From Phascolarctobacterium sp. (GTDB lineage Bacteria; Bacillota; Negativicutes; Acidaminococcales; Acidaminococcaceae): a DNA stretch of 64,000 nucleotides. The translations under genes were made by a program, and so were the position numbers. The DNA lies in assembly GCA_017467905.1 (NCBI GenBank), contig JAFUKD010000024.1, positions 25,958 through 89,957 on the forward strand, written 5' to 3'. Below are positions 9,636-46,342 of the stretch, piece after piece. Within the stretch, counting starts at the first letter, position 1. The number at the start of each line of letters is the position of its first letter. The notes beneath the pieces were generated by a model, which was given only the letters and a program-made list of their open reading frames with translations, had not been told where the DNA came from and searched no databases.

Positions 9636-9905
9636 TTAGTAAAGCTTCACTTGCAAGGCTTCGTTTTCTTCCGCAGCATCCTCCAAGACTTGTAAGAGCT
9701 GCGCACCATACCAGCCTAAATATTTTTCGTCCTTCACCTGTACGGGCACGATAATCTCTGTAGGAATGGCAAGCTCCGTTAAACAGTCATGCAAAGCGTC
9801 CAGATTCATACCATAATATTCCGGCAGCTCCAAGGCTTGGTGCAAATAGTTGTGCAACGCGGGCAAGCTAGTCATTCTATTTAAATCCAATGTAATCTTA
9901 CGCAT
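9636..9905 (-). CDS. Barstar-family ribonuclease inhibitor
   Basis: 89 aa containing LHNYLHQALELPEYYGMNLDALHDCLTE, as in the barstar family. Sits immediately downstream of the barnase-like gene. Confidence 0.75.
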   Translation of the reverse strand: MRKITLDLNRMTSLPALHNYLHQALELPEYYGMNLDALHDCLTELAIPTEIIVPVQVKDEKYLGWYGAQLLQVLEDAAEENEALQVKLY

Positions 9906-9914
9906 AATATCCTC

Positions 9915-10454
9915 CTAATAAAGCTTGGTAAAAGTTTTGTAATGATCGCCCGTATAATAAATCAAGCCATCATTGGAATATACTATACGTTTGGCATTAC
10001 GGTTGCCTTTGACATAATCAATGTCACACTCACGATACACGCGACCATTCTTCTTGGGCAGGATGCCTTCGTAATTTCCGAACTTGTCGCCTCCAATGGA
10101 TTTACCTGGCGCAACCTTGTCCAAGGTTCCCTTTGTTTGCCAGCCAAGCTTTTTAGCTTCACCTTTAGTAATATAATTGTGGGGAAGTTTGCTAAATTGG
10201 TTGATGTATGCCGCCACACGCACCTTGTCAGTATAGGTGCCACTTTCCTTAATGCTAATCTTCTGGCTGTTGGCCTTGTGATTATCCTGTGCAACAACCT
10301 TCTTTGTAGTTTGGGTAGTCTTCCCCTTAGTCTCAACCTGAGCTGTAACCTTAGCAGGAACAGTAGCTTTGGCGTCCTTCTTCTCTCCACCGCAACCAAC
10401 GATAACACTCATAACGAGCATTAAACTAAGTAAAAATGCTAATATCTTTTTCAT
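9915..10454 (-). CDS. Barnase-like (N1/T1 family) secreted ribonuclease with a lipoprotein-type signal peptide
   Basis: The C-terminal domain GWQTKGTLDKVAPGKSIGGDKFGNYEGILPKKNGRVYRECDIDY...RIVYSNDGLIYYTGDHYKTF matches barnase motifs. Start moved to the internal MKKILAFLLSLMLVMSVIVGCGG (lipobox-like VGC), which follows a GAGGATGG RBS. Confidence 0.75.
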   Translation of the reverse strand: MKKILAFLLSLMLVMSVIVGCGGEKKDAKATVPAKVTAQVETKGKTTQTTKKVVAQDNHKANSQKISIKESGTYTDKVRVAAYINQFSKLPHNYITKGEAKKLGWQTKGTLDKVAPGKSIGGDKFGNYEGILPKKNGRVYRECDIDYVKGNRNAKRIVYSNDGLIYYTGDHYKTFTKLY

Positions 10455-10507
10455 TTCACACCATCCTCTACTATTTACTTCAATAATATTAGAAGTTTCG
10501 TACATTT

Positions 10508-10556
10508 ACCAGTGATACTTCTGAGTGTATCGCCCCTATCGGAGCATTTACTTAAA
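10508..10556 (-). repeat. Degenerate att-like unit L1. Minus strand reads ...GCTCCGATAGGGGCGATACACTC AGAAGTATCAC TGGTAA
   Basis: Similar to unit L2 along its whole length. Contains an inverted repeat GATAC(N8)GTATC and, in the rlmH frame, CAG AAG TAT CAC TGG TAA. Confidence 0.5.
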
Positions 10557-10565
10557 TGGTTCTCT

Positions 10566-10626
10566 AAAAAACGCTCCGTTAGTTATGATACTTTTCTGTG
10601 TATCACCCTCATCTGAGCGTTTTTTC
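10566..10626 (-). repeat. Island-distal att-like unit L2 (candidate attL). Carries the 24-nt direct repeat of the rlmH 3' end inside an imperfect palindrome
   Basis: AACGCTCCGTTAGTTATGATACTT at 10570-10593 is identical to 45854-45877. Arms AACGCTC..ATGATAC / GTATCAC..GAGCGTT form a roughly 22-bp-arm inverted repeat flanked by A and T runs. Confidence 0.6.
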
Positions 10627-11007
10627 AACGCATCCATTTATGATAACTTCACTTAGTCATATTATACCACAAATTTTACTGTGATATTTACACACATATA
10701 TTATGGAAGAAAATTTACGATAGTGTCAATAGGGTCACTAGTGTCACTATTTTCTTACAAAAAGTTTCTCTTCTCCCGATTGGTCATTTTGTATCAACAA
10801 AATTTTGCAGATGGTTATGGTTTTACCAAGAGTATGTGCAGTGGCTGAGCGTTTTAAGCTAGAAATATAGCTGCTTTTTTCTATGATCCATAGCTATGTG
10901 AAATTACTGTACTTTTTATTTATCGTAGCCACTGTTGCCACTATAGACACTATTTGAAGATCCATCATATATCAATGAACACCTTTTATTTATAATCACT
11001 TTGTTAG

Positions 11008-12400: not shown

Positions 12401-12820
12401 CTATTGCACTTTGAGTGCAGTGATAACCTTTTTGGTCAAATCTTTGCCACCAACAATCATTACATTAGCATTCACAACGCTATCCACCTTGTTAGCTTGT
12501 GCTACGCTCAAAATGGTTTCGCGAATCTTTTTGTTGATGGGGTCATACTTGCGTTGTTCAAACTTCGCCATTTGAGCATTCAGCTTGTTGGCAAGTTCAA
12601 TCTTTTCCTTATCGGTTGCAAGTACTTTTGCTTGTTCGTTGAACTGTGCTTGCAAACGAGTTTTTTCTGCAACAACTTCTTGAGCAACTTCCTTAATACC
12701 AGGATAGTTTGCCACAACAGCGTTCCAATCTACAAAACCAAGTTCAGCAGCGAAGGCACTGGTGCTAAAGCCCAAAGCCATCAACGCAGAACAAAGTAAG
12801 GTCATAAGTTTTTTCTTCAT
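12401..12820 (-). CDS. OmpH/Skp-family periplasmic chaperone
   Basis: 139 aa with a signal peptide ending FSTSAFA/AE. The coiled body (EKTRLQAQFNEQAKVLATDKEKIELANKLNAQMAKFEQRK) and C-terminal VMIVGGKDLTKKVI are typical of OmpH. Confidence 0.7.
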   Translation of the reverse strand: MKKKLMTLLCSALMALGFSTSAFAAELGFVDWNAVVANYPGIKEVAQEVVAEKTRLQAQFNEQAKVLATDKEKIELANKLNAQMAKFEQRKYDPINKKIRETILSVAQANKVDSVVNANVMIVGGKDLTKKVITALKVQ

Positions 12821-12837
12821 TTAATATATATCTCCTG

Positions 12838-13284
12838 TTATTCAATTTCTTTCCAAATTTTCGCCATAATGGAAGCGTATTCGCCTTCGAGGAACTTAAC
12901 GGTTTCTGCAATGATGGCATTTACCAAAGCAGGGTCAAAAGCATCATCTTTAGAAACGATGCATGCGTTAAGAAGCAAATCGCCTTCATTAGTGATAATA
13001 AACTTAAACACGCGGTAATTATTATTCATTTCGTTAAGGAAAGCTGCAATTTTAGCGAAAGCTTCGCCTTTTACGAGAGCAGGAGCAAGTTGTACTTGTA
13101 AGAGTGCGTAAACGCTTTTGTCAAGAAGCACTGCGAACGGCAGAGTTTGACCTTTAACTTGCATCAAGCTACGGAACACAGCGGTTTCGTTTTCGTCATT
13201 GCGTTCTTCCACTTGGAAGCATTCAATTTTATTTTCAGCAAAGAAGTCTTTAAGTTTAGTAGTTTTTACATTAATATTTTCCAT
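12838..13284 (-). CDS. YbjN-like / secretion-chaperone-like small cytoplasmic protein
   Basis: 148 aa, acidic, no signal peptide. The fold assignment rests only on general resemblance to the YbjN family. Confidence 0.35.
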   Translation of the reverse strand: MENINVKTTKLKDFFAENKIECFQVEERNDENETAVFRSLMQVKGQTLPFAVLLDKSVYALLQVQLAPALVKGEAFAKIAAFLNEMNNNYRVFKFIITNEGDLLLNACIVSKDDAFDPALVNAIIAETVKFLEGEYASIMAKIWKEIE

Positions 13285-13346: not shown

Positions 13347-16300
13347 TTAGAAAGTTACTCTCAAGCCTGCATCTACACGCCATTTTTCGGTTACATCGCC
13401 ACCGAAGCTGCGTTCATAGGTTGCATAAAGCAGGCTGTTATCGCTCAGCTTAGCAGTGCCGCCAAGTTGCATTTCGTACCAAGTATCGCCAAAGTCGATG
13501 TTAGTACCCTTAGTTTCTTCTGCAGTGTAGTTGGTATCGAAATCGCCACCAAATTCATGAGCCAAAGCAAGTTTAGCATAGTAGCTTGCTCTTTCAGTTC
13601 TTTGACCAATGCCAAAACCAACGCGACCGATGATGCTGTTGAAGTCGTCTTGTTCAACTTGCATGGTTGCAGTTTTGCCGTAAGCAGCGAGCATATCACT
13701 GGTTGCAGTATAGTCTTTGCCTTGAACGTGACCAATGGTCAATTCAACGCTGGGGTCAAAGTAGAAGCCATTGCCTTTTTCGATGCGTTTGCCGTATTCT
13801 GCACTGATGGAAGTACCCCAAGTTTTGAAGTCGCCTTCAAGTTTGTAGCCATCGTTGTTAAATACTTCGTATTCGTTTTTCAATTGGCTACCTTTGAGGA
13901 TCAAGCCAAGGTAACGACCGTCGCCATAATCTTTGTTACCGTAAACAGAGAGGCTGGTTACAGTCATTTCGCCTTCACCACCACGGTCATAGCGGCTATC
14001 GCCTTCATTATGGCTTACTGCTACGCCCACGTTCCAACCATTGCCAACTGCTTTGTCATAGCCAACTTGGTATGCTTTGTAGTTGGTGGAGAAGTTGGTG
14101 TTTTGAGCATCCATTTCGTATTTACCGCCATAGTATTTAGCCCAAACGCCACTTTCTTCTGTAGCAAGGCGTACATCGCCCATGCGTTGGAGCAGGTCGT
14201 TGCTTTCGCTTCGCCACATCATAACGGTGGAAGCCATTGCAGATTTAGCGCCTTTCATCATAGCAGTTTCGCTATCACCATAGATGTAACCACTGTCAGG
14301 ATATCTTGCAGTAATGGATTCTTCGTCCAAATCACCAGTACCATTAGCAAAGTTAATGCTACCAACTTTCAATGCGCTTGCAGATGTTACGATACCTTCT
14401 GCAATTTGAGCTTCACCGAGAATATTTTTAGCATTGCTAAGCGCATTACCGTTTTCATCTTTAGCAATCATCTTCGCTGCCAAAGCTTTAAGTACTTTAG
14501 CAACTTCTTCTTTATCGCTAGTACCAATGCTATTAGTTCTTACATTCACGACGGAACCGTCAGCAGCTTTTTGGATATTAACATTACCACCAAGAATATC
14601 GTTGTCTGCATTATGACGATAGATAAAGGTAGTTTCGCCACTGTAATCTTCAACGGTCAAACCAGCGTTACTATCTTCACTCATACGGATGAAGCCTTCT
14701 TTTTCACCAGAAGCAGCACCCGCAAGTTTATCAATGGTAGTCGCATCTTCTGCGGTGTTTTCCCAAATAGCACCGTTGGAGATTTGCAAGTTAAGAGCAG
14801 AACCGGAAGCAATATCATCATGGTAACCAGTCCATACACCGCCATCATCAAGCAGTACGGTCAAATCTACGCCACCAACACTGTTACCAGTCCATTTTGC
14901 ACCGTTGGCAATGGTTGCACCAAATTTATTGTCACCATTACCTGCATATTCAACATTATCGTTCAAAGCAGAATCAGCAGTAGTCAGGCTTACAGAAGAA
15001 GCATCTGTAGGCACAACCATTCTACGAGTAAGCTTCAACACTACGGGTACTGCTTGTTCTTCTTCAACAGGTTTAGCTACGCCAAGAACAATTTTGCCGT
15101 TGATAACTACGTCGTGGTCTTTCGCTTCTTCGTTAATCTTAATCTTACCGCCATCGGTAACTTTAATTGCTGCTTCATCACCTTTAGCACCAATTTCGCC
15201 ACCTGCAAGAGTTACAGTAGAGCCTTCGCCTACATTAACAGCAATCTTGCCATTGGTTTCAGTAATATCTACCAAACCGTTGATAGTTACGTTAGCTTTA
15301 TCTTCTGCGTGCAATACGCCATGGGTTTTATCGTTATCTTTGGCACTAAGTTTAACAATATTATCATCCTTATCAGTATGGATAGTAACATCTTTGCCCT
15401 CACCGCTTGCATAGATGGCAGAAGCCTTACCATTGTTGCCTACTGCTTCTGTTGTAATGATAATGTTGCCAGCATCCTTAATTGTTACACTGCCATCTAC
15501 CGCTTCAATGCCTTTAGCTTCCTTAGCTTCGCCATTAGTTTTACCAGTAACATCAAGGTCTTTACCTTTCATTTCAAGTACAAGATTACCACTCGCGGGA
15601 CCACCAATTAAGGTAGTATTTTCTGTGGATTCTTGCGGAGCGATAATTACTTTATCAACTTCTTCATGTTCAGGTTTAGCATTGCCTTGTTGGTCAATAT
15701 CAAGCTTGCCAAAATCAACTACATTATTACCACTTTCATCCTTGCTAACGATACTTTCGCCTTTATCATTTTTAAGGCTATCGTCGTTTGTCAAATCGCC
15801 ACCGATACCGCCAAATTCTTTTTCAACAGGTTTTTCTTCAGGTTCAACAGGTTTTTCCGGTTCAACAGGTTTATCCGGAGTGGTAGGTGTATCTTCGCCA
15901 CCTTGGTTACCACCTTGGTTATCGTCACCACTAGGAGGTACTTCCGGTGCTACATCCATTTGCAAGCTATCTTTATTCAGGCTACCTTGACCAGTAGAGC
16001 TACTAAAATCAATGTTGCCGGTATGTTTACCTACGCTAGAAGCAGTCAAGCCTTCGGCAATTTGAACGTACCCTTTCAAGTTGCGTTCGCCATCAACATA
16101 GTTAGTGTAGTACAGTTTTTCTGCAAGGTTATCTAAAGTTTCAGCAACTTGTACTTTATTCAAGATGTTATACCCATCAGTACTCAAGGTAATTTTAGAA
16201 CCTTTTTCAGCATGTTCAATGGTAGTAGTACCGCCGAGAACTTTGGTTACATTGTTATCGTCACGTCTGTAGATGATTGTTGTATTACCGCTGTAATTGG

Positions 16301-19300
16301 TAATTTTCAAGTTACCAGTTTCTTGTTTGCCCTTATCTTCGATACTTGTGTTCTTAAAGCTTACGCCATTACTATTTTCTGCATGGCTAGCATCATTATG
16401 ACCAATAAATGTTTTGTTACCAGTCATATCAATAAAGCCGTTGTCCCCGATAAAGGTGTAAACTTTACTATCAGCACCTTGGTCTTTGGTAATTGCGTTT
16501 TGCCAAAGTGCCTTGTCAGTCAGTGTCAAAGTTAAACCACCATTAATTTCACCAACATCGTCAGGTTCACGTTCTGCAATGTTAAATCCGTACCAAGTAG
16601 TACCTTCACCTTCCATGGTTACGTTCATTTCGCCGTCACTAAAGCCAGTCCAGTCTGCCCCATTTTTCATATACAGGGTAACATTGCCTTCTTGACCTTT
16701 AGTTACGCCATAACCGCGGTTATCGCCATAGTTACCAGTCCAGTAGCTTTCGTCACCGTTCAAGCCTACAGTAATGTAACCTAAAGTACCCATACCGCCG
16801 TTGGTTACAAAGTCACCAATAATGGTAGTCTTGCGTTCGCCAGCACCAGTAATATTTCCGTCCTCATCTTTAACTACGTTCACGTTTACAGTTGCAGCGT
16901 TATCGGAAACAAATTCACCATAAGCACGAATAGCGCACCATGCACCATTTTTAGCTTCAAGATGTCCGCCACCGATTTCAATGTCAGAAGCAACTGCACT
17001 AAGAGCTTCGTTGTTGCACTTATCCAAATCAGCAACGATATGTACCATACCATCAATTATTACTTTAGAACGTACACCATCAAGACCGTTCATGGTCTTA
17101 ATACCAGCACCTTCTTGACCATAAGTATCAGGGTCAACACCTGCTTGAGTGTCAATCCTCACAACTCCGCCTTCGCCATTTTTAATATGTACCACGCCAC
17201 CGCCGTTAGCAAATATGCCCGCAGAAGGACCAATACAATTTTCAGTAATGGTAATATTACCAGGATTATTAATTTCAACAGTACCGCCATCAATAGCACT
17301 GATTGCCGCACCGCTACCAATACTTGTACTATTGTTATTCAACACAAGTTCATTGCCATTTAAGTTGACAATAGTTTTATAGCTTTTATCTGGATTATCC
17401 AAATCACCACTTGCATAGATAATTGCACCTATATCTTTATGCCATGGGCCACCTTCAATACGGGTTGTATCATTTCGGGTGGTGTTTTCAGTATAAGTAA
17501 TGACTTGTTCATAAACTACAGGTTCAGTTACCACATCATCTTCGTCATCATCAGGTGTGCTACCACCATCAACAACCAAATCGCCAAGGCTACCCTTACC
17601 ACTACTTGCATCAAATTTAATATTACCATTCAAAGTACCGCTTTCTTTATCAAAGGCAACTTTTTCAAGTTCGCTATTAACGCTACCTTTATTATCAATA
17701 AAGCCACCATTTAAAAGTTCTGCTGTAATTGAAGAAGCAGTCAAACCTTCGCCAATTTTCAAATAACCTTTTAAATTATTTTCGCCATTTGTATAACCAG
17801 TATAGTAAAGTTTACCTGCTAAACTATTGAGTACTTCTTCTACATTATCAACTGTAATAGCACTGGAATAGTTAGTTTGTAAGGTAAGGTTACTACCTGC
17901 TGTAGCACTTATTATAGTGATATCCCCACTACCTTGGAAATTAGTAGGTTCACCTTCTTCATAAGAATATATTACGGTTGCATTATTGTGGAACTTATCA
18001 ATAAGAATATCACCACTATTTGCGGTTTGAATTATCCTAGCATCGGCATAATTCGCCGTCGTCCCCCTGCCAACACTCAAATCCGTGCCACGGAAGTTGG
18101 TTAAATGACTTGTTACACCAGGTTCGCCATTGGTAGAAACGTTAGTCCAAGTAGCACCATCAACCAAGTACAAATTAGCAGCACCACCTTCGTTAATGAC
18201 AGCACCATTAAAATAAGCGTAACTACCTTTCATACGTGCATCAATAGCAGCATTTTCACCACCAACATACCAGTCGCCATCAATCATACCACCAACTGGA
18301 ACGGTGTTGTGTGTATATGTAGGGTCATAGCCATAGGAAGGATAACCATTGCCGTCAAATTGGATATTGCCATTATAGGCTGCTAAAGAATAATACTTAT
18401 GCTCTGCATTACCTGTAGGTACAAGGATTTGACTTCCTTTATACGGATTGTAGTTAATGTTATTGTTGCCTACATTGTACCCTACCTTGACAGCCGCAAA
18501 GCTTCCCATTAAATCGCTACCAGATGCATCAACAGTAATACCATTACCGCAAACATCCATATAGACACTACCATTTATCTCAATAGAACTTCCATTTACA
18601 TCTAACAAAATACCCGAATTATTATAACGTGCATCAGTATTGTCAGGATTATCGCAGATACCCCATTGATTAGGTTCAGTACCTTTTATCTTCACATCAC
18701 CATTAATACTTAGATAGCCACCCAAATCTGATTCTTTATTACCATCACTTCTAGTAATTGCGATACCATTACCACCATGACCACCCACCATAGTAATATT
18801 TATCCCATGGCTAGATTGAATAGCTGCACTTAAACAATCAGTAGTATTACCAAGACCAGGTTCTATCCAAATTGCGTTTGTGCGTAAGTAACTGTCTTCC
18901 GGTAATACGGTTACGATATCAATAGTTTTATCACTACCAGCTGTACCAAGTATTGCCCAGTTATCAATCGCATCATTATAAATAGCAACCGGTTTATAAT
19001 CATAATCACCATTTATTTGTATGCGTACTAAATCAGGGTTATCAGTACCAAGCCAATCCTGATAACCATTTTCTAAATATAATCCAGTTACAATCTTCTT
19101 GTCTTCAAGTTTTATAGCTTCGCTTGTATCTATAACTCCGTTCGGTGTTGCATCAACAAAAACATCATTATCATACAAAGGTGCTTCGTGATTTTTAACA
19201 TTGGGGTACGCAGGACCAGTAGTTACTTGTTCATTGTCGTTATCATCGCCACCAACATCACCACCACCAATATTAAGGTTTTCGTCAGTAATATTGCCGG

Positions 19301-22079
19301 TAATGTTACCGCTACCTGCATTAGCACTAAAATCAATATTTACCTGTTTGGTAACACTTGAAGAAGTCAAGCCTTCGCTTAAACCAAGTGCAACAGCAGT
19401 AAGGTTACTACCGTTAGTAGCATAATCGTTATAGTAAAGCTTGCTTGCCAAAGCTCCTAAAATTTCATCAACAGTTGCAATATCTCTTGTAGCAATACCT
19501 TTATTGTTGGAGGTAATCATAGCAATTTGGCTACCAGTAGCAGCTTTATCAATCGTTACTGTACCACCAAGAATATCAGCATAACTATTTTCGCCATGAG
19601 CAGTATAGTTAACCTTAATGGCACCTTCCAAATTATCAATCAAAAGGTTGTCACTATTGGCAGTTTGCACAATGATACCTGCGGAATTAAGGTTACTGCC
19701 ACCTTTCAGTTTGGTTACGCGGCTTGTTTCGCCGTTGCCAATATCTTCATTATCTTGGCAGTAACGGCTGTTGTTGGCTTCGTTAGTCCAAGTTGCACCA
19801 TTTTGCAAGGTAAGGTTTACAGTACCACCATTATCGATAATACCTTTAATATGGCTATCGGCAGTAGCCAAGCCTAAGTTAATGGTTGCACCTTCAAGGG
19901 CGAAGATGTCACCATCAAGCTTAACATCATTTTCACCAACAGTTTTACCGTTAGCACCCATGTTCATATTAATAGTGCCTTCATAAGCAGCAAGGGTATA
20001 GTAACCGTAATCAGTGCCCGTAGGTACGGTAATGCTACCGCCTTTTTCAATGGTAACAGTAGACTTTTTACCATTAACGGTTACACCGTTGCCGTACACG
20101 TCCATATCTACGTTACCCTTTACTACAACGCTACTGTTATTTACATCCACAAGGATACCTGCATTGTTAAAACGGCTAATTACGTTTTCCGGATTAGCAC
20201 CAATACCCCAATCTTCTTTGGTAGCACCTTTGATGTTCAAATCACCTTTAATAACGATATCGCCACCCAAGGCAGAAGTTTTACTGTTTTCGCCCCAACG
20301 GTCAGTCTTTTGAATTGCTACACCGTTACCGCCATAGCCACCTTCCATTGTGATATTGGTAGCTTTAGCATCGATGGTAATACTTTCACCACCAACTATT
20401 GTGGGGTCAAGCCAAATTGCATTAGTTAAGCTATTACCACCATCCATAGTCTTAGTAAGGATTTCCAACTTACCGTTTTTAGCATTGATTTTAAGACCTG
20501 CATCCGTAGCATAAACACCTACGGGAGAAGCCACATTATTTCCCACCTGAATTTGCAAACCATTATTAGCATTAACGGTTGAAGATATGCCTTCTGCATA
20601 AATACCTGCAAGCACGTTGTTACCAAGATTGCCTTCATCATCTTTGGTAAGATTAATTACCGCATCAGTACCATTTACATTGGCAACGATTTGATTATTA
20701 ATTGCCGTGATATTCGTACCATTTTCTTTTTTAACAACAACATTTTCATTCGGTGTATCAGCCCATTCGCCAGTAGCAAGTTGTACTTTCACAAGCTTAC
20801 CTTCGGGAATAACATCAGTACGGATAATATCCCAAGTGTAGAGTTCCTCATACATAGCATTGGTAGCAAAGCTGTCAGTACCAAATACTTTGGGGTCAGT
20901 TGCGCCGTCAGTGTAGATGTGCAGCTTGTTGCCCACTTGTACCCACAGGCGTTTAGTGTTGTATTCCGCATCCAAGCGACCAAACCAGCCGGGAGCTGCT
21001 GCTTCGTGGTAAACTTCTTTCCAATTTTGGGGATTCGCACTAAGCAGATTGCTTACGGTAGTTTGGTAAACAGTTACGTCTACATTCTTGCCTGCCCTGC
21101 CAATGTTGTATGTCATTACATAGGCAGTACCGTTGGGCAGTACCTTCAAGCTACGGAACTCGCTTTTGGGAATGGTTTGCCCATCACGCACTTGCAATAA
21201 ATTTTCCGGCAAGGTAATTTGGCGAGTATCCATAAATCTTTTAGTTTCAGGATTTAAAGTTACTACGTCAATGGATGTTTCTGCATTGGAGTTTTCTGCA
21301 CCGTAGTATTGATAACCGCCAATGGCAGTTGCCAGCATATAGTTGTTATATACATTTAGTGCTACGGAGTCGGTGTTCTTACCCATTGTGGTATAGCCGT
21401 CATAGCTAAGTCTACCATCCGGCATAATAGCATATTTAATCAGGTAGGAAGGGTTATAAGGAGTGTAGCCACCTTGAGGGTTGCAGTTTGCAATAACGTA
21501 AAGGTTGCCATCAATGATTACGACACCTTCACCATGGAGCTGTGCCTTGTTACCAAAGGTAACACCACCATAAGTCTCTAAATCATTTTTCAAATCTCTG
21601 TAAAAAATAGTTTTGTCGCTAATAACACTATCTGTCACTTGCGCTACACCTACAGTACCCTCGTCATAGGACTCTACATAAACAAAATCTTTGTAACGTG
21701 CCACATCATGGGCATTAGTAGCCTTGCTAACGGTACCAGCTACTCTATTATTCCAATCACCTTGTGCATCAAAGGCATAACTGTTTTGCAAGTTAACGTT
21801 ACTGTATGTATATTGACGGATGTATAAAGTGCTTTTACCAGTAACAGGGTCAACGGTGTTATAAACCGCAGGGTCACCATTAAGACCGCTGATTACGGAT
21901 TTTATAGCAGTAATATCGCTAGAATTTATAAAAGAGCCTTCAATGGCACCCATATGGGATGTAACATAGTCAGAAGCGGTTACAATACCAAGCTTGGCAG
22001 CTTCCGCAGTGCTTCCCAATACGAAACCACCCAAGACAGTAGCCAGTATGGCGGCTTTTTTAGTAGAGCTTATCTTCAT
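13347..22079 (-). CDS. Giant type V autotransporter (2910 aa) with a modular repetitive passenger and a C-terminal beta-barrel translocator
   Basis: Signal peptide MKISSTKKAAILATVLGGFVLGSTAEA. Four passenger modules each end in LA.KLYY..Y..G..NLKGY..I.EGLT.SS. The C-terminal ~280 aa (MMWRSESNDLLQRMGDVR...YATYERSFGGDVTEKWRVDAGLRVTF) is an autotransporter beta-domain with a terminal Phe. Confidence 0.85.
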   Translation of the reverse strand: MKISSTKKAAILATVLGGFVLGSTAEAAKLGIVTASDYVTSHMGAIEGSFINSSDITAIKSVISGLNGDPAVYNTVDPVTGKSTLYIRQYTYSNVNLQNSYAFDAQGDWNNRVAGTVSKATNAHDVARYKDFVYVESYDEGTVGVAQVTDSVISDKTIFYRDLKNDLETYGGVTFGNKAQLHGEGVVIIDGNLYVIANCNPQGGYTPYNPSYLIKYAIMPDGRLSYDGYTTMGKNTDSVALNVYNNYMLATAIGGYQYYGAENSNAETSIDVVTLNPETKRFMDTRQITLPENLLQVRDGQTIPKSEFRSLKVLPNGTAYVMTYNIGRAGKNVDVTVYQTTVSNLLSANPQNWKEVYHEAAAPGWFGRLDAEYNTKRLWVQVGNKLHIYTDGATDPKVFGTDSFATNAMYEELYTWDIIRTDVIPEGKLVKVQLATGEWADTPNENVVVKKENGTNITAINNQIVANVNGTDAVINLTKDDEGNLGNNVLAGIYAEGISSTVNANNGLQIQVGNNVASPVGVYATDAGLKINAKNGKLEILTKTMDGGNSLTNAIWLDPTIVGGESITIDAKATNITMEGGYGGNGVAIQKTDRWGENSKTSALGGDIVIKGDLNIKGATKEDWGIGANPENVISRFNNAGILVDVNNSSVVVKGNVDMDVYGNGVTVNGKKSTVTIEKGGSITVPTGTDYGYYTLAAYEGTINMNMGANGKTVGENDVKLDGDIFALEGATINLGLATADSHIKGIIDNGGTVNLTLQNGATWTNEANNSRYCQDNEDIGNGETSRVTKLKGGSNLNSAGIIVQTANSDNLLIDNLEGAIKVNYTAHGENSYADILGGTVTIDKAATGSQIAMITSNNKGIATRDIATVDEILGALASKLYYNDYATNGSNLTAVALGLSEGLTSSSVTKQVNIDFSANAGSGNITGNITDENLNIGGGDVGGDDNDNEQVTTGPAYPNVKNHEAPLYDNDVFVDATPNGVIDTSEAIKLEDKKIVTGLYLENGYQDWLGTDNPDLVRIQINGDYDYKPVAIYNDAIDNWAILGTAGSDKTIDIVTVLPEDSYLRTNAIWIEPGLGNTTDCLSAAIQSSHGINITMVGGHGGNGIAITRSDGNKESDLGGYLSINGDVKIKGTEPNQWGICDNPDNTDARYNNSGILLDVNGSSIEINGSVYMDVCGNGITVDASGSDLMGSFAAVKVGYNVGNNNINYNPYKGSQILVPTGNAEHKYYSLAAYNGNIQFDGNGYPSYGYDPTYTHNTVPVGGMIDGDWYVGGENAAIDARMKGSYAYFNGAVINEGGAANLYLVDGATWTNVSTNGEPGVTSHLTNFRGTDLSVGRGTTANYADARIIQTANSGDILIDKFHNNATVIYSYEEGEPTNFQGSGDITIISATAGSNLTLQTNYSSAITVDNVEEVLNSLAGKLYYTGYTNGENNLKGYLKIGEGLTASSITAELLNGGFIDNKGSVNSELEKVAFDKESGTLNGNIKFDASSGKGSLGDLVVDGGSTPDDDEDDVVTEPVVYEQVITYTENTTRNDTTRIEGGPWHKDIGAIIYASGDLDNPDKSYKTIVNLNGNELVLNNNSTSIGSGAAISAIDGGTVEINNPGNITITENCIGPSAGIFANGGGVVHIKNGEGGVVRIDTQAGVDPDTYGQEGAGIKTMNGLDGVRSKVIIDGMVHIVADLDKCNNEALSAVASDIEIGGGHLEAKNGAWCAIRAYGEFVSDNAATVNVNVVKDEDGNITGAGERKTTIIGDFVTNGGMGTLGYITVGLNGDESYWTGNYGDNRGYGVTKGQEGNVTLYMKNGADWTGFSDGEMNVTMEGEGTTWYGFNIAEREPDDVGEINGGLTLTLTDKALWQNAITKDQGADSKVYTFIGDNGFIDMTGNKTFIGHNDASHAENSNGVSFKNTSIEDKGKQETGNLKITNYSGNTTIIYRRDDNNVTKVLGGTTTIEHAEKGSKITLSTDGYNILNKVQVAETLDNLAEKLYYTNYVDGERNLKGYVQIAEGLTASSVGKHTGNIDFSSSTGQGSLNKDSLQMDVAPEVPPSGDDNQGGNQGGEDTPTTPDKPVEPEKPVEPEEKPVEKEFGGIGGDLTNDDSLKNDKGESIVSKDESGNNVVDFGKLDIDQQGNAKPEHEEVDKVIIAPQESTENTTLIGGPASGNLVLEMKGKDLDVTGKTNGEAKEAKGIEAVDGSVTIKDAGNIIITTEAVGNNGKASAIYASGEGKDVTIHTDKDDNIVKLSAKDNDKTHGVLHAEDKANVTINGLVDITETNGKIAVNVGEGSTVTLAGGEIGAKGDEAAIKVTDGGKIKINEEAKDHDVVINGKIVLGVAKPVEEEQAVPVVLKLTRRMVVPTDASSVSLTTADSALNDNVEYAGNGDNKFGATIANGAKWTGNSVGGVDLTVLLDDGGVWTGYHDDIASGSALNLQISNGAIWENTAEDATTIDKLAGAASGEKEGFIRMSEDSNAGLTVEDYSGETTFIYRHNADNDILGGNVNIQKAADGSVVNVRTNSIGTSDKEEVAKVLKALAAKMIAKDENGNALSNAKNILGEAQIAEGIVTSASALKVGSINFANGTGDLDEESITARYPDSGYIYGDSETAMMKGAKSAMASTVMMWRSESNDLLQRMGDVRLATEESGVWAKYYGGKYEMDAQNTNFSTNYKAYQVGYDKAVGNGWNVGVAVSHNEGDSRYDRGGEGEMTVTSLSVYGNKDYGDGRYLGLILKGSQLKNEYEVFNNDGYKLEGDFKTWGTSISAEYGKRIEKGNGFYFDPSVELTIGHVQGKDYTATSDMLAAYGKTATMQVEQDDFNSIIGRVGFGIGQRTERASYYAKLALAHEFGGDFDTNYTAEETKGTNIDFGDTWYEMQLGGTAKLSDNSLLYATYERSFGGDVTEKWRVDAGLRVTF

Positions 22080-22094
22080 AACGTCTTTCCTTTC

Positions 22095-24731: not shown

Positions 24732-24798
24732 AGACAACATCTCCAATCAATCATTCATACATAATTTGGGATTACTAAATAAAAAAAGAACCTTCCAA

Positions 24799-25904: not shown

Positions 25905-26513
25905 CTATATATTATTTTCATATTCTGCTACCTTCCTGTAGAATGTAGTACTAGTCCATTCATACTTTTTCATTAGACTCTTTGCTGTACACTTCTTAGC
26001 CTTCCATTCTTTGTAATCATCTTCCCAAGTTTCTGGGAAAGGATATTTCTTTCTACCAAAATGTACTCCTCTTGCCTTAGCAGCTACTATACCTTCTTCT
26101 TGCCGTTTCCGAATATTCTCACGTTCCACCTGTGCTTGATAAGCCATCACTTCTATAAGGATATTGTTTATAAGTTCCATTATTCCCTGTCCTGCTTCAC
26201 CATAGTCTACCATGCTCGTTGGTAAGTCCAAAATCCTGACAATTACCTTCTTCTCTTTCAAGTCAGTAAGTAACCTCTTAATATCATTCTTGTTTCTGCC
26301 CAACCTATCAAGGCTATGGATATAGAGAGTATCCCCTTGCCTAATGTTATATAACAGGCTTTCCAACCCAGGACGATTAGTATCCTTGCCAGACATCTTA
26401 TCAACGATTATATCCCTTTCGTTAGGAATGTATTTTTTCAAGCTGTCAATCTGACGATCCAAGTTTTGCTCCTTTGTAGACACTCTTGCGTAACCGAAGA
26501 TTTTGTTATTCAT
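25905..26513 (-). CDS. Small serine recombinase (resolvase/invertase family)
   Basis: MNNKIFGYARVSTKEQNLDRQ catalytic N-terminus, with DTLYIHSLDRLGRN and a C-terminal HTH. Start set at the internal ATG after an AGGAGG RBS. Confidence 0.85.
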   Translation of the reverse strand: MNNKIFGYARVSTKEQNLDRQIDSLKKYIPNERDIIVDKMSGKDTNRPGLESLLYNIRQGDTLYIHSLDRLGRNKNDIKRLLTDLKEKKVIVRILDLPTSMVDYGEAGQGIMELINNILIEVMAYQAQVERENIRKRQEEGIVAAKARGVHFGRKKYPFPETWEDDYKEWKAKKCTAKSLMKKYEWTSTTFYRKVAEYENNI

Positions 26514-26679
26514 TTTATTGCACCTCCTAAAAAAATATTCACAATAAGTGCAACAAAACCTACTTCCACCTAAAGTTGTATGCAACATTTGTAAAAAAAA
26601 AGAAAAAGGGACATAGATATCATTCAAAATACCTATGTCCCAAAAGGTGTACTTTTTGTTGTACCTATTTAGTTATTAA

Positions 26680-33358: not shown

Positions 33359-33736
33359 CTATACACGATGGTTCTTAATCCACTCTAAAAGCTCATCATA
33401 TTTCAAACTACCTTCTGCTAATCCCAACCCTATCTGTACTACTTCATCATTAGTACAATCAAGATATATTCCATTAACCTCCAAGAATGTAATCATTATG
33501 TACATTCCTATTCTTTTATTACCATCGACAAATGCATGATTAGATACTAAGCTATATCCTATTTTTGCAGCCTTTTCTTCTTTGGTAGGATAAAACTCCT
33601 TATCACCAAAACCTGCAAAAGCACTCTCTATAGCAGACTCCAATAGTCCTTCATCACGAACACCAACGCTACCTCCAGTTTCGGCAGCAATAAGTTGATG
33701 TAACAGTAATATCTTTTCTTTAGAAAACTTAATCAT
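33359..33736 (-). CDS. doc: Doc (death-on-curing, Fic family) toxin
   Basis: 125 aa with the HAFVDGNKRIG Fic/Doc motif. Overlaps the phd stop by 4 nt. Confidence 0.85.
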   Translation of the reverse strand: MIKFSKEKILLLHQLIAAETGGSVGVRDEGLLESAIESAFAGFGDKEFYPTKEEKAAKIGYSLVSNHAFVDGNKRIGMYIMITFLEVNGIYLDCTNDEVVQIGLGLAEGSLKYDELLEWIKNHRV

Positions 33737-33999
33737 TTCGCAAGCTCCAGAAATGCAGGTTTAAATCTTTTTAAAACCCTGGCTGCAACAATATCAATTT
33801 TTTCATCATCAGTTAAATCAATTATAGGGGAATTATCCATATCAATAACGAGATATTTAGGTCGATTGTTTTTGAAAATAACTGCTTGTCCATTTTTTTC
33901 TGCAATTCTAGTAACACGAGAAAAATTTTGGTTGGCTTCAGTAACAGAAACGATAGTATTGGTATCAATATTCATATCAACTACCTCCTTTATCTCCAT
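33733..33999 (-). CDS. phd: Phd/YefM-family antitoxin
   Basis: 88 aa containing VSVTEANQNFSRVTRIAEKNGQAVIFKNNRPKYLVID. Immediately upstream of doc. Confidence 0.75.
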   Translation of the reverse strand: MEIKEVVDMNIDTNTIVSVTEANQNFSRVTRIAEKNGQAVIFKNNRPKYLVIDMDNSPIIDLTDDEKIDIVAARVLKRFKPAFLELAK

Positions 34000-34139: not shown

Positions 34140-34295
34140 TTATGACCAGAATAACCTCCAATAAACCAAGAGTATTAAGCTTTTGAATGTTATCCATAAT
34201 ACTAATAATAAACTAAGTAATAGCAATTCTAGCCTTTTATCCGTTTCACTAAGCATATGCTCCCACCTTTCGTTGTTATATTTGATTTCTGTCAT
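34140..34295 (-). CDS. Possible 51-aa hydrophobic micro-protein translationally coupled to the recombinase stop
   Basis: Own translation gives MTEIKYNNERWEHMLSETDKRLELLLLSLLLVLWITFKSLILLVYWRLFWS. Its ATG overlaps the recombinase TGA (ATGA). Below the track size cut-off. Confidence 0.25.
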   Translation of the reverse strand: MTEIKYNNERWEHMLSETDKRLELLLLSLLLVLWITFKSLILLVYWRLFWS

Positions 34296-35932
34296 ATTTC
34301 GATAACCAATAGCCATTGCTCATCCTCCAGTGTTCCGTTGCATAAAAAAATCCCCCCATCATTTTGGGAGGATTTAGATGTCAGGTATTCTTGAAGCTCT
34401 ATGCCAAACTTCATATAGAGCTTATCTACCTTGTTATTTTTCACGGTTATTCTATCAATCAACAATCTCAATAACAATTTCGTTTGTTCTGGTGGAGCGG
34501 AATCCATCACTGCCTTAAAGTTTGCCAATGATTCCTTTATAAATTCAATATTCAACTCATTGTTGGTAAGGCTATTATTTCCTGCTAATATTTTCTTCTG
34601 TTCTATTAGCTTAGTAGCACTATCATTCAACTCGCTTATCCTTTTATCAAGGGTAGCTTTGTCATATCTGCCATCAATGTATAAGTCTAATAGCCTTTGT
34701 TTACGTTCTTCAATTTCAACTATCTTTGCATCCACGCTATCATACTCACGCTTCCTGCTTTCGATAGATTTGTCTGCTTTTTTCTTAATTCCACATAGTA
34801 TTTCTTGGATAAGCTCAGGACTACTTAAAAACTCTGCTACCTTATCCAATACATATTTCTCTGCTTCGTCAGCACCTACAGAGTTACTTTTACATACGCT
34901 AGCACCTTTGTTTTTGAAGTTGGAACAACAATAGTACCTATATACTCGTTTATTGCCATTCTTCAAATTACTAGTAGACCTACCTATCACCATAGGAGCA
35001 TTGCACACAGGGCAACGCAACAGGCTACTAAGATAGTTCTCGTCATTATGTACTTTCTGCGTAGTAGAACACCTTTCAGAACGAATATTTTGTGCCCTGT
35101 TCCAAACTGCTTCGCTAACAATAGCTTCGTGAACGCCTTTAACGATAATAGGGTTTGGATTCTTCCCTTTTCTACGTTTTTCGCTCCACTTGCGGTACTT
35201 CCCATATCTTACATAACCCTTGTATAGTGGGTTATCGATAATTTCTCTTATGCTATACAAGCTAAACTCTTTACCATGAATAGTTCTATAACCTTCTTTG
35301 TTAAGTTTATTAGCTATAGCCTTAAAGCCTTTACCATTGCAGAACCATTCGTATATTTTCCTGATGATTATCGCTTCTGGCTCATAAATGACTAGGTCAT
35401 TCTTTTTGGGTCTGGTAGCACTCGGAACAACTCGGTAACCCAATGCCTTACTACCGCTATGCAAGCCAAGTCTAGCTCTTTGGTTTAAGCCTAAGCTAAC
35501 ATTTTCAACAATGGTATTGCGTTCTAATTCACCAACCGCAGCGAGCATTTGAACTGCAAACTTACCCATGGGATTAGAGGTATCGAAGTTTTCTGTGAGT
35601 GAGGTGATGGAAACGTTATATTTCTCTAGTCTCTCGAAAATCTCAAGGAAATCCTTGGTATTACGAGAAATGCGATTAATCTTCCACACCACCACTTCGT
35701 CAAACTTACCACTCTCAGCATCTTTAAGAAGCCTCTGTACCTCTGGTCGTTTAGTAATGTTCTTACCACTTATGCCAGCATCTACATATTCACCGACTAC
35801 AGTATAGCCATGCAGTTCACAATATTGGTGGATTTTTTCTTTTTGACCTTCAATGGAATAACCCTTCTCAGCTTGTTCTTCAGTTGATACCCTTGCATAT
35901 AGGGCTACTCGTTTTGGTTTTGATGGATCCAT
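34292..35932 (-). CDS. Large serine recombinase (CcrB-like position)
   Basis: MDPSKPKRVALYARVSTEEQ catalytic N-terminus, a recombinase domain, a zinc-ribbon (CPVCNAPM...YRYYCCSNFKNKGASVC) and a coiled-coil C-terminus. Start set at the internal ATG 4 nt after the upstream stop. Confidence 0.9.
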   Translation of the reverse strand: MDPSKPKRVALYARVSTEEQAEKGYSIEGQKEKIHQYCELHGYTVVGEYVDAGISGKNITKRPEVQRLLKDAESGKFDEVVVWKINRISRNTKDFLEIFERLEKYNVSITSLTENFDTSNPMGKFAVQMLAAVGELERNTIVENVSLGLNQRARLGLHSGSKALGYRVVPSATRPKKNDLVIYEPEAIIIRKIYEWFCNGKGFKAIANKLNKEGYRTIHGKEFSLYSIREIIDNPLYKGYVRYGKYRKWSEKRRKGKNPNPIIVKGVHEAIVSEAVWNRAQNIRSERCSTTQKVHNDENYLSSLLRCPVCNAPMVIGRSTSNLKNGNKRVYRYYCCSNFKNKGASVCKSNSVGADEAEKYVLDKVAEFLSSPELIQEILCGIKKKADKSIESRKREYDSVDAKIVEIEERKQRLLDLYIDGRYDKATLDKRISELNDSATKLIEQKKILAGNNSLTNNELNIEFIKESLANFKAVMDSAPPEQTKLLLRLLIDRITVKNNKVDKLYMKFGIELQEYLTSKSSQNDGGIFLCNGTLEDEQWLLVIEI

Positions 35933-35936: not shown

Positions 35937-37463
35937 TCACCTACTTTCTTTAATATCAATTTTCATTGTTTGTAACCTTCCATTCTGCTTCACGTTAGGT
36001 ATGTAAACTTCAATAGTCTTAACGAACCTATCCTCGTCTACATATACCGCCTTAATAACACCACGTAGCAGCTTTATCTTTTCTTCGTCAGTTGCTTTTT
36101 CTAACAGCTTTGGTAATAGTTTAAACGCTGCTCTAATTTCTTCTTCGCTATACGCTTGCCTTACTTCACTAAACTGCTTACGATTTAGATCCAGTTCTAC
36201 TTCTTCTATGGCTTCCTGAATAGCATTGTCCTCTTCCAGCAACTGTTCAGTGCTTAGCCTGCCTTCTTCAAAAGCCAATAGCAGTTTATCACGCTTGGCA
36301 TTCAGCTTAGTTATATTACTTTTAAGGCTCTCTATTTTATCTTCCATAGACTTATCAACGGATAATCTTACTTGGACTTCTTCAATTACCTTATTCAGCC
36401 AGATATCCTTACACAGATACTTGTAAAGGAAAGCCAAAACAACTTCATCAGCTTCTTTAGCCTTGACTAAGTTTGGCTTGCAATTGCCAGTTCCCCTATT
36501 ATTGTACTCGTTACAGCTATAGTAATAGTACCGCCTTTCAGTACCATTCTTATTCTTATGGAATACGTGTGCAGGTATCATACCTGTACCACAAGCAGGA
36601 CACTTAACTAGTCCTGAGAGCAAGTAACGGTAATCAACAATTCGTTTACAGTGTGTTTTGGTAGCCAACATTGCTTGAGCCTTTTCCCAAGTTTCAATGC
36701 TTACTATAGGCTCATGAATACCTTGGTAATACTCTCCACAATACTTGACCATTCCTGCATACACCTTACTATCCAATATTCTCTTAATAGACATAATGGA
36801 AAACGGACTACCCTTACTACCTCTATACCCATCAGCATTCAACATTTGAGCAATTGACTTAAAGCCATATCCTTGCAAGTATAAATCAAATACTTTCCTT
36901 ACAGCTTTTGCTTCTCTCGGAACTATTACTAGCTTTTTAGTGCCTTTAGGGTCATCAGTGTCAGGTATGCTATCATACCCAAACAGCTTCCCACCAACTA
37001 CCTTGCCGGCTTTAGCCTTTTTCTTGCTCCCATTAAGTACGTTTTCTATCAAAGCTTCCCTCTGCATTTGGGCAATGCTGCCAAACATCTGGGCAGTAAA
37101 CTTTCCTACAGGGGTATTAAGGTCAAACTTTTCAGTAAAGCTGAATAGCTGTATGTTTTCCCTTTGAAATTCGTCGAAGATAACCAATAAATTAGCAAGC
37201 TTCCTGCTCAACCTGCTTATCATCCAAACGCCTACACTACCAAATAGACCTTCTTTAGCATCATTAAGCATAGCCTGTAAGCCAGGTCTTTCCATAGTAT
37301 ATCCAGAAATACCTGCGTCCTTATAGACCTTGAACACCTTCTTGCCTTGTCGAGCGATTTCGTCTCGAAGCACCTTTTCCTGAGCTTCGAGACTATAACC
37401 GCCTTCTGCTTGCCTAGTGCTACTAACACGCACATAGATAGCTACAAACTTAGATTTATCCAT
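35937..37463 (-). CDS. Large serine recombinase (CcrA-like position)
   Basis: FVAIYVRVSSTRQAEGGYSLEAQ catalytic N-terminus, a zinc-ribbon (CPACGTGM...YYYYSCNEYNNRGTGNC) and a coiled-coil. Confidence 0.9.
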   Translation of the reverse strand: MDKSKFVAIYVRVSSTRQAEGGYSLEAQEKVLRDEIARQGKKVFKVYKDAGISGYTMERPGLQAMLNDAKEGLFGSVGVWMISRLSRKLANLLVIFDEFQRENIQLFSFTEKFDLNTPVGKFTAQMFGSIAQMQREALIENVLNGSKKKAKAGKVVGGKLFGYDSIPDTDDPKGTKKLVIVPREAKAVRKVFDLYLQGYGFKSIAQMLNADGYRGSKGSPFSIMSIKRILDSKVYAGMVKYCGEYYQGIHEPIVSIETWEKAQAMLATKTHCKRIVDYRYLLSGLVKCPACGTGMIPAHVFHKNKNGTERRYYYYSCNEYNNRGTGNCKPNLVKAKEADEVVLAFLYKYLCKDIWLNKVIEEVQVRLSVDKSMEDKIESLKSNITKLNAKRDKLLLAFEEGRLSTEQLLEEDNAIQEAIEEVELDLNRKQFSEVRQAYSEEEIRAAFKLLPKLLEKATDEEKIKLLRGVIKAVYVDEDRFVKTIEVYIPNVKQNGRLQTMKIDIKESR

Positions 37464-39220: not shown

Positions 39221-39244
39221 GTTTTTCCTCCTTTCTTTATTCTG

Positions 39245-39269: not shown

Positions 39270-39293
39270 TATTTAAATTATTAAGCAACCACT

Positions 39294-40526: not shown

Positions 40527-40551
40527 ATTGTTTTCTTCCTTTCCTTATTAA

Positions 40552-45800: not shown

Positions 45801-45841
45801 GAAAACTCCAACCCTCACAATCGAGAGTTGGAGTTTTTATT
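45801..45841 (-). terminator. Rho-independent terminator following rlmH, lying inside the island end
   Basis: Stem AACTCCAAC...GTTGGAGTT is followed by a T-run on the minus strand. Confidence 0.6.
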
Positions 45842-45853: not shown

Positions 45854-45880
45854 AACGCTCCGTTAGTTATGATACTTCTG
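45854..45880 (-). repeat. rlmH-proximal direct repeat (candidate attR)
   Basis: AACGCTCCGTTAGTTATGATACTT is identical to 10570-10593. It covers the rlmH stop codon (45863-45865) and its last four codons. Confidence 0.65.
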
Positions 45881-46342
45881 ACCGCTACTAATCTTAAATG
45901 CTCTGTAAATCTGCTCAATCAAAAGCAGTCTAATCATTTGATGAGTAAAGGTCATTTTAGAAAAGCTCAAGGCAAAATCTGCACGCTTGCGCAAAGCATC
46001 CGTATAACCAAAGGCACCGCCAATGACAAAAGTTATATGACTATGTCCGCTGAGAGCAAGATTATCAATCTTACTTGCCAGCTCCGGTGAAGATAACTGC
46101 TTGCCAATTACGTCCAGTAAAATCACATAGGAATTTTCCGGAATAATCGCTAGAAGCCTATTAGTTTCCTTCGCCAGTACTTGCTCCTTTTCTGCAGGCG
46201 CAGGGTTATCAGGCATTTTTTCTTCATTGATGGCTACGGTCTCCAATTTACAGAAAGGAGTAAGCCTTTTGGTAAATTCGTCAATACCAGCAGTCAGGTA
46301 TTTTTCTTTAATCTTTCCTACACACGCAATGGTTATCTTCAC
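45863..46342 (-). CDS. rlmH: 23S rRNA (pseudouridine1915-N3)-methyltransferase RlmH
   Basis: 159 aa, SPOUT family. Contains MKITIACVGKIKEKYL...LSSPELA...HITFVIGGAFG...LSFSKMTFTHQM.R..L.EQIYRAF. Confidence 0.9.
   Translation of the reverse strand: MKITIACVGKIKEKYLTAGIDEFTKRLTPFCKLETVAINEEKMPDNPAPAEKEQVLAKETNRLLAIIPENSYVILLDVIGKQLSSPELASKIDNLALSGHSHITFVIGGAFGYTDALRKRADFALSFSKMTFTHQMIRLLLIEQIYRAFKISSGQKYHN

Follow-up and report, generated by a model that had tools for sequence, protein, structure and literature searches.

Why should a genomic island end in stacked copies of the very gene end that it entered? The question is raised by a 64,000-nucleotide (nt) stretch of DNA (hereafter the window; contig JAFUKD010000024.1 of GenBank assembly GCA_017467905.1), which is assigned to Phascolarctobacterium (Acidaminococcaceae, Negativicutes): its best rlmH relative shares 91% amino-acid identity, and the first island protein bears the NCBI name 'MAG: ... 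Phascolarctobacterium sp.'. Here a low-GC island of ~35.4 kb is bounded by rlmH on one side and by a barnase/barstar–ABC-F–MatE flank on the other, with a GC content of ~0.34-0.42 within 10.5-45.9 kb and 0.44-0.46 outside (window GC profile). We consider it probable, though well short of assured, that this is an island resembling the staphylococcal cassette chromosome (SCC), with two tandem sites in its attachment region that correspond to different rlmH alleles. A first-pass annotation, made from the letters alone, had drawn attention to stacked attachment-like (att-like) units at the distal end of the island. The sequences that it quoted for two of these, L1 and L2, were found on the minus strand, ~35 kb downstream of rlmH. 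The sites in question and the genes that bound them are as follows.

45863..46342, minus strand: rlmH (23S rRNA pseudouridine-1915 methyltransferase), the integration target; 159 aa, Pfam SPOUT_MTase, E = 1e-56.
45854..45905, minus strand: putative attL; host left half (rlmH coding), centre CA (45880-45879) and element right arm GTATCATAACTAACGGAGCGTT.
10674..10689, minus strand: L4, a degenerate relic of an rlmH end, AAATATCACAGTAAAA.
10627..10650, minus strand: L3, a relic comprising a right arm only, GAAGTTATCATAAATGGATGCGTT, without an element-type left arm.
10566..10625, minus strand: L2, an attP-type site with element arms on both sides, AAAAAACGCTCAG-ATGAGGGT-GATAC aca GA aaa GTATCA TAACTAA CGGAGCGTT.
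10549..10565, minus strand: spacer between the arms of L2 and L1, containing no open reading frame (ORF).
10490..10548 (about), minus strand: L1, putative attR; element left arm AATGCTCCG-ATAGGGGC-GATAC act, centre CA (10523-10522), then gaa GTATCA CTGGTAA.
9915..10454, minus strand: barnase-like ribonuclease (Pfam Ribonuclease), the first chromosomal gene past the island.
9636-9905, minus strand: barstar (Pfam Barstar), after barnase.

The rlmH gene of the window ends CAG AAG TAT CAT AAC TAA (Q-K-Y-H-N*), and L1 contains CAG AAG TAT CAC TGG TAA (Q-K-Y-H-W*) with its stop at 10508-10506; both gene ends, as first described, can be read directly from the codons. Island-free contigs of relatives (L084, L085, L086 and L088; three-figure L numbers denote contigs compared with the window) end rlmH in SSGQKYHW*, with the start of a barnase gene 11 nt on. 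This barnase is the gene that follows L1 in the window, and in L084-L086 it lies directly 3' of rlmH. In more distant Acidaminococcaceae, and also in L096, L097 and L099, rlmH is followed by (barnase), ABC-F and MatE within 2-6 kb. An end in ...KYHW* is found in most of the Acidaminococcaceae loci compared; the tails among 120 close RlmH homologues include SRGEKYHW (59), SNNQKYHW (37) and SSGQKYHW (8), with few KYHN, and KYHN ends are always accompanied by element DNA. The comparison with island-free relatives that the first-pass annotation had called for thus came out in its favour: their KYHW* ends, and empty sites with barnase 11 nt downstream, support its proposal that L1 is the displaced ancestral end of rlmH. 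On this evidence the island is an insertion, and L1 is its putative attR, joining an element left arm to the displaced gene end.

The origin of the KYHN tail is indicated by the same kind of comparison. The right arm AAGTATCATAACTA(A/G)CGG(A/T)GCGTTAAA, together with the terminator hairpin of the window, recurs in contigs L090 and L091 (with SRGE as host context) and L092 (with SNNQ), and the KYHN tail and right arm are accordingly found behind three host codon contexts, SSGQ, SRGE and SNNQ. Because one right arm follows differing host codons, we take the tail to be element-borne and the codons upstream of it to be host-derived. The terminal codons of rlmH in the window (...H-N-stop) derive from the island, and the gene stays intact.

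All att sites were aligned in one common register, which resolves them into the following blocks.

attL: left GTAGC; N8 positions 1-3 ggt; centre CA; N8 positions 6-8 gaa; right GTATCA; tail taactaa CGGAGCGTT.
L1: left GATAC; N8 positions 1-3 act; centre CA; N8 positions 6-8 gaa; right GTATCA; tail ctggtaa.
L2: left GATAC; N8 positions 1-3 aca; centre GA (10596-10595); N8 positions 6-8 aaa; right GTATCA; tail taactaa CGGAGCGTT.

The imperfect palindrome GATAC-N8-GTATC, from which the att-like nature of the units had been proposed, is borne out, and at L2 it extends to arms of 26 nt (inverted repeat I1). Exact GATAC-N8-GTATCA occurs in the 64 kb only at L1 and L2, while one mismatch yields 8 matches against 0.56 expected, a number reached in 0/100 shuffles. 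The arms follow the pattern AAYGCTCMG-N8-GATAC / GTATC-N8-CGGAGCGTT, in which the N8 varies among sites and the flanking blocks are kept; a half-site is therefore an inner block, GATAC, and an outer block, AAYGCTCMG, with 8 variable nt between them. Such a layout of inner and outer blocks is expected of large-serine-recombinase sites (Bxb1, phiC31, A118), and a dyad with both blocks conserved in each half-site around a 2-bp centre is what defines sites of this class (~40-60 bp). The termini of the island bear the inverted repeats CGGAGCGTT / AATGCTCCG and GTATC / GATAC, and attL and L1 have TCAGAAGTATCA in common. The short repeat CGGAGC/GCTCCG flanks the large island and also the L2-L1 interval, in agreement with the earlier description.

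Other particulars of that description needed amendment. The units had been placed ~55-60 bp apart; by the positions of TATCA (10645, 10590 and 10517) this holds for L3 and L2, which are 55 bp apart, but L2 and L1 are separated by 73 bp. The weaker third copy is present as L3, although with the right arm alone and a different internal spacing; it resembles ...YHK-stop ends such as the SCC insertion site sequence GAAGCATATCATAAATGA (PMC8407400). L2 does carry the KYHN-stop end ascribed to it, but no extra AA shifts its frame: it reads ...T-E-K-Y-H-N* in frame.

Might L1 and L2 simply belong to a dispersed family of repetitive extragenic palindromic (REP) sequences or terminators with no relation to rlmH? 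The tail motif AGTATCAYWRSTRA has exact copies in the window only at L1, L2 and the rlmH end, and across 1.37 Mb of related loci the matches to the rlmH-end spelling fall downstream of rlmH. This confinement to rlmH-linked positions contradicts a dispersed origin, which the first-pass annotation had itself raised as a challenge to its reading; nothing was seen that speaks for such an origin, and we find it scarcely credible.

What distinguishes L2 from its neighbours is its centre. The dyad GATAC-N8-GTATC puts the centre at N8 positions 4-5, and the SCC insertion site sequence, 5'-GAAGCATATCATAAATGA-3' (PMC8407400), starts with GA in the register of this N8 centre. In a passage of PMC10581047 that cites Misiura 2013, CcrAB is reported to require a central GA. 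The central GA is the start of the Glu codon in ...G-E-x-Y-H; the host of the window has Gln (CAG) instead, and hence CA. In the window the centres are CA at the rlmH end, CA at L1 and GA at L2, the corresponding codons being Gln-Lys, Gln-Lys and Glu-Lys. From the dyad symmetry and the register homology to the SCC site, we infer that crossover takes place at the CA/GA position. Productive recombination by serine integrases needs identical central dinucleotides in the partner sites. Since partners must match centrally, L2 (GA) would be unable to recombine with the CA sites that flank it.

The centre of L2 bears directly upon the origin of the stack. The first-pass annotation took the L2-L1 interval for a minimal remnant left by an earlier element. 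On a literal reading, one element would have inserted, a second would have followed at the new rlmH end, and the first would have decayed in place to ~57-73 bp, with L2 surviving as the junction in the middle of a tandem pseudo-SCC array. L2, L1 and the rlmH end are all in direct orientation, as such a history requires, and inverted repeats of element type bound the interval. Composite arrays at rlmH are well documented in passages of PMC10061031, PMC11470126 and PMC6222049, for SCC, for the Enterococcus cassette chromosome (ECC) and for others, and contig L028 contains a mini-unit with matching GA centres. However, a junction formed in situ should read ...CAGAAGTATCA, whereas L2 reads ACAGAAAAGTATCA, with three differences in the 8-nt core and the next 24 nt identical. 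Because its core is GA/Glu and that of the host CA/Gln, L2 is unlikely to have been formed by integration into the rlmH of this host. In a pseudo-SCC array each interval is a cassette and the internal sites recombine; the interval here is 73 bp with no cargo and no intact or decayed ORF, and L2 has GA where its neighbours have CA. Furthermore, the short two-site spacing recurs proximally in L011 and L106, where a 51-bp 'element' as the newest insertion is implausible. We judge an origin by local decay to be quite unlikely. It is disfavoured by the GA/Glu core and by the mirror-image relatives described below. Past junctions do accrete at this end, as L3 and L4 show. A recent 73-bp duplication was also considered as the sole source of L2 and L1 and was rejected, the right arms being identical but the left arms only ~73-78% alike.

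In place of a local origin, the composition of L2 points to hosts with the other allele. Its final 27 nt (GAAAAGTATCATAACTAACGGAGCGTT) are identical to the rlmH end of the Glu-allele host L090, which carries a related element; its right arm is identical to the active right arm at 24/24 positions, and both conserved left-arm blocks are kept. Among the RlmH homologues, the Glu and Gln alleles largely track lineages. A hypervariable rlmH tail resulting from an arms race was tried as an explanation and set aside, for the last eight codons have an entropy of 0.52 against 0.23, yet several internal positions vary more. Separately, five RlmH homologues at least 90% identical overall (P0053, P0064, P0077, P0088 and P0095) were seen to have the tails SQGGTYHK, NNNESYHK, LNNENYHK, INNVTYHK and SAGTKYHK, respectively. 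Tails so divergent suggest that there are further element families, in which a longer part of the gene end is replaced or the crossover lies further upstream.

Relatives in Glu-allele hosts display the arrangement of the window in mirror image. A sister element in L106-L111 has the same ORF order and both recombinases, its first gene being 78% identical to that of the window. Its rlmH end reads ggt GA gaa GTATCA taactaa CTGC..., and directly after rlmH stands an intact site, AACGTTCAG ataatggt GATAC act CA gaa GTATCA tagctaa..., followed by the body-start terminator. The same combination of a GA junction at rlmH and an adjoining intact CA site is found in L011, a different species; in these Glu-allele hosts (L106-L108 and L011) it is thus the rlmH centre that is GA and the adjoining one that is CA. 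For the distal end, L112-L121 keep the homologous part of the island, from the autotransporter through the last 120-aa gene, and finish AAAAAACGCTCAGATGAGTGTGATAC gct GA gaa GTATCA ttggtag (a KYHW* end), then barnase. Judged by its sequence context, an L2-type left arm with GA is a genuine attR in these hosts. In each host compared, integration has used the site that agrees with the rlmH allele of that host. As a control, 9 arrays from other genera were examined, and the GA of the host is present in 10/11 downstream units, the exception being a GC-centred relic in L028.

When circle junctions were reconstructed, they proved colinear (alignment A3), running from the end module through the GA site and the CA site to the terminator. 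The spacer between L2 and L1 is absent (~21 nt shorter) in the sister arrangement, and the GA-then-CA order is conserved in three diverged elements. The mirrored arrangement in Glu-allele hosts suggests that the two-site attachment region is carried by the element and is not a locally decayed cassette.

The relic L4 was absent from the first-pass annotation and came to light when relatives were compared. At the position homologous to it, L112 reads AAATATCACTGGTGA (K-Y-H-W-stop), and in that contig the position is a cassette junction. A 1.1-kb ParE/RelB cassette (5664-6840 of L112, also in L113-L121) is inserted exactly there; after AAATATCACTGGTGA its junction continues with CCATAACTAACTGC and a terminator, and the ~170-270-nt end module is duplicated beyond the cassette.

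L2 could instead be a passive fossil: either a junction of the arms of two elements or an old attP from a Glu-allele host, carried along while the outer attP drifted from GA to CA, and with no present function. The accretion of relics at the distal end, evident from L3 and L4, would suit such a history. Tandem arrays normally have middle sites that are complete palindromes (L028, L036), the L028 array holds a relic with a non-matching centre, and SCC elements themselves hold internal imperfect att sites (PMC8407400). A fossil would not, on the other hand, be expected to be wholly intact as L2 is, with its identical right arm and both left-arm blocks, nor does drift account readily for a GA-then-CA order kept across three diverged elements. 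It sits poorly, too, with a used site that matches the allele in each host and with an L2-type arm that is the working attR in L112. We regard the fossil as unlikely, while giving it appreciable weight.

Two further features of the island borders are relevant to the possibility that L2 acts on transcription.

10700..10729, minus strand: outward-facing promoter-like site, TTGACA-18-CATAAT, in the island end module and directed toward the stack and barnase; 11/12 consensus matches, a consensus match only.
45802..45836, minus strand: element-borne hairpin and U-run just inside the island; the fold of 45790-45880 has -26.2 kcal/mol, z = -4.6.

L2 could be mainly a hairpin at the island border, serving as a terminator or insulator, with its likeness to an att site incidental. 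Its RNA folds into a hairpin (-22.2 kcal/mol, z = -6.1) with A6 and U6 on its flanks, and the promoter-like site just upstream is directed outward to barnase. A pattern scan nevertheless found no canonical terminator in the L2 region. Moreover, the identity of L2 with rlmH ends in other hosts extends over 27 nt, and the L2-type left arm serves as attR in L112, neither of which an incidental likeness would lead one to expect. As an account of L2 this is very improbable; a terminator role could, however, be compatible with an att role.

The island puts 35 kb between rlmH and barnase/barstar, and places the promoter-like site and the L2 hairpin upstream of the latter pair. The barnase is called as secreted, and barstar is an inhibitor of barnase-like RNase; in island-free relatives, where barnase starts 11 nt past the rlmH stop, both genes are probably co-transcribed with rlmH. 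The hairpin at the other border probably terminates rlmH transcription, and an rlmH-adjacent hairpin and U-run is also present in the L090, L092 and L011 elements. We also observed that the spacer from the L1 stop to the barnase ATG (10455-10505) measures 48 nt in the window, compared with 11 nt in L112 and in the empty sites; the surplus of ~37 nt may represent another relic or intergenic sequence peculiar to the lineage.

Returning to the two-site attachment region, the enzymes that would act on it are encoded within the island.

35937..37463, minus strand: large serine recombinase 1, in the CcrA position; 508 aa; Pfam Resolvase, Recombinase and Zn_ribbon_recom; NCBIfam CcrB, E = 7e-77, 259 bits.
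34292..35932, minus strand: large serine recombinase 2, in the CcrB position; 546-555 aa; Pfam Resolvase, Recombinase and Zn_ribbon_recom; NCBIfam CcrB, E = 4e-120, 402 bits.

The two recombinases are a paralogous pair, 35% identical and encoded by adjacent genes. CcrB is the best NCBIfam match of each. Both score far below its equivalog cut-off of 900 bits and, by these scores, are homologous to Ccr proteins without being equivalogs.

We propose that a circular element was integrated into the last codons of rlmH by these two adjacent Ccr-like recombinases. At the rlmH end, attL would comprise the host left half, the CA crossover and the element right arm, which supplies ...H-N-stop and the terminator; L1 would be attR, comprising the element left arm, CA and the displaced ...KYHW-stop just upstream of barnase. 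As both are CA sites, attL and L1 could recombine, excising 35,356 bp and restoring ...SSGQKYHW-stop. The circle junction expected from this excision is GATACACTCAGAAGTATCATAACTAACGGAGCGTTAAATAGCG and the expected empty site AGTAGCGGTCAGAAGTATCACTGGTAAATGTACG; use of L2 in the window would join AGCGGTCAGAA to the right flank of L2 (...CGGAGCGTTTTTTAGAG). L2 itself would be an intact attP-type site with a core that copies the Glu-Lys allele, inert in the present host and competent for a Glu-allele rlmH. In the excised circle, the GA site would be followed by the CA site and this by the start of the body, giving two attP sites in tandem. Whichever site matched the rlmH allele of the recipient would be used and the other left intact, the unused site coming to lie distally after CA-site integration (as in the window) and proximally after GA-site integration. 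L3 and L4 would be older, decayed relics in one accretion zone.

Under this scheme, L2 may still be of use today. More tentatively, two intact tandem attP sites (GA and CA), each copying one rlmH allele (Glu and Gln), may enable one element to integrate into hosts with mutually incompatible attB, with whichever site went unused persisting as the stacked unit. On that view, the change from Glu to Gln in rlmH would alter attB such that GA-type elements are kept out, and the second site would be how the element responds.

Several observations weigh against the two-site proposal. The crossover position is inferred and not mapped; were strand exchange to take place further right (for example at the AA common to all sites), L2 could pair with its neighbours, and a tandem array might then have arisen in situ. 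The relatives with empty sites are only ~85% identical in nucleotide sequence and are not the window's own lineage. All contigs found carry the integrated form, and among them no circular junction or excision product was seen. L112 (distal) and L106 (proximal) are different contigs from different samples, and are not proven to represent two ends of one element. L090 and L091 have their GA junction directly on the body-adjacent arm, such that not every member of the family is two-site, and in L106 and L011 the outer motif of the GA-site right arm is degenerate. Finally, the relic with a non-matching GC centre in L028, which belongs to another genus, demonstrates that odd-centred passive fossils occur.

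Exact-protein look-ups with the RlmH, barnase and recombinase 1 of the window returned the same island in the same lineage only, with no empty site or alternative integration. P0123, a 90%-identical homologue of the distal gene, lies on a contig without att sites. Scans for AAYGCTCMG-N8-GATAC-N8-GTATCA gave no match in the viral collection and two chance matches only in the JGI metagenomes, in a glycosyltransferase-like coding region.

The remaining genes of the island were also surveyed. Its cargo (13347-24746, minus strand) comprises a 2910-aa autotransporter and an 883-aa TonB-dependent receptor (Plug domain), and small OmpH-like and YbjN-like proteins follow this region at 12401-13284. Outer-membrane cargo is unusual for an element of the cassette-chromosome type and fits a diderm host. 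A small serine resolvase adjoins a dynamin/LeoA-like GTPase (25905-27660, minus strand), for which PADLOC gave weak LeoA/LeoBC matches, and a Phd-like antitoxin/Fic pair lies directly downstream of the recombinases (33359-33980, minus strand).

Directly upstream of the recombinases are four tandem ORFs of 394-503 aa (37709-43819, minus strand), sitting where SCC has its replication module. DNA repeat family D5 is common to all four, the 503-aa and 410-aa ORFs are 24% identical (BLASTP, E = 6e-21), and a Walker-A-like GEQGSGKT motif is kept in the 503-aa ORF only. For this ORF, PADLOC gave one weak match only (Cmr5, E = 0.0029) and a PDB sequence search a weak P-loop match only (E = 0.033). For the six ORFs upstream of the recombinases, Pfam and NCBIfam returned no match, although sequence methods could miss remote homology. 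Searches of Pfam, NCBIfam, PADLOC and PDB detected no Cch/CcPol-type replication module (Cch/MCM-like helicase, CcPol-SSB, DUF927/950/960) adjoining the recombinases.

Arrays of 2-3 rlmH-end units, or Ccr-like recombinase pairs downstream of rlmH, were noticed in further contigs labelled Pelosinus or Clostridia, namely L028 (10480-19500), L067 (4722-12400), L033 and L047; in L028, the GA centres of a ~50-bp mini-unit match, and a relic at the terminus is centred on GC. Islands that target rlmH appear to be widespread in Negativicutes and Clostridia.

In staphylococci, cassette chromosomes that target rlmH are best known for carrying methicillin resistance. To the known hosts of this type of element the window adds a diderm gut commensal, in which the cargo is of the outer membrane. 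The target crossover dinucleotide is polymorphic between host lineages, and sites for either version are found within the element family. Provided that both are functional, they would give a serine-recombinase element with a simple means of widening its host range, while a single codon change would offer hosts a simple escape from such elements. They would also constitute a natural orthogonal pair of att sites for one recombinase pair, of interest for genome engineering.

How does the island compare with known systems? Literature searches returned no report of an rlmH-targeting cassette element in Negativicutes, and no description of allele-matched alternative central dinucleotides within one element. 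The first-pass analogy with SCC att sites is upheld by the Ccr-like recombinases, the TATCATAA-like core and the terminal inverted repeats. Like SCC and SCCmec, the island of the window has entered rlmH at its 3' end and restored the reading frame; it encodes an adjacent pair of large serine recombinases with CcrB/CcrC as best family match; it is bounded by direct repeats whose TATCATAA-type core starts at the crossover dinucleotide, and by terminal inverted repeats; and more than one rlmH-end repeat lies downstream, with internal imperfect att sites. Unlike them, it resides in a diderm Negativicutes bacterium, its recombinases fall far below the Ccr equivalog cut-offs, and Cch/CcPol-type replication genes were not detected in the window. 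Its active sites are CA and not GA, with GA only in the unused L2; its stacked interval is 73 bp without cargo and has an internal site with a centre unlike those of its neighbours; and its cargo consists of outer-membrane proteins (the 2910-aa autotransporter and the TonB-dependent receptor).

Passages of PMC6222049, PMC10061031, PMC11470126 and PMC10581047 describe rlmH-targeting islands with Ccr-like recombinases and composite arrays in Staphylococcus, Enterococcus and other Firmicutes. For ECC and other Firmicutes islands, the relevant passages of Bebel et al. 2023 (PMC10061031) report SCC-like elements outside Staphylococcus, with ends located by matches to the last ~12 bp of rlmH; some are composite with several repeats, and predicted empty sites were confirmed in other strains. 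The island of the window likewise lies downstream of rlmH, and differs in its proposed allele-matched alternative crossover sites, which are not described for those islands. With Bxb1 and phiC31 it has in common dyad-symmetric sites with a proximal and a distal conserved block in each half-site. These phages, however, possess a single attP, one integrase and a separate directionality factor, whereas the window has two recombinases and apparently two tandem attP-type sites.

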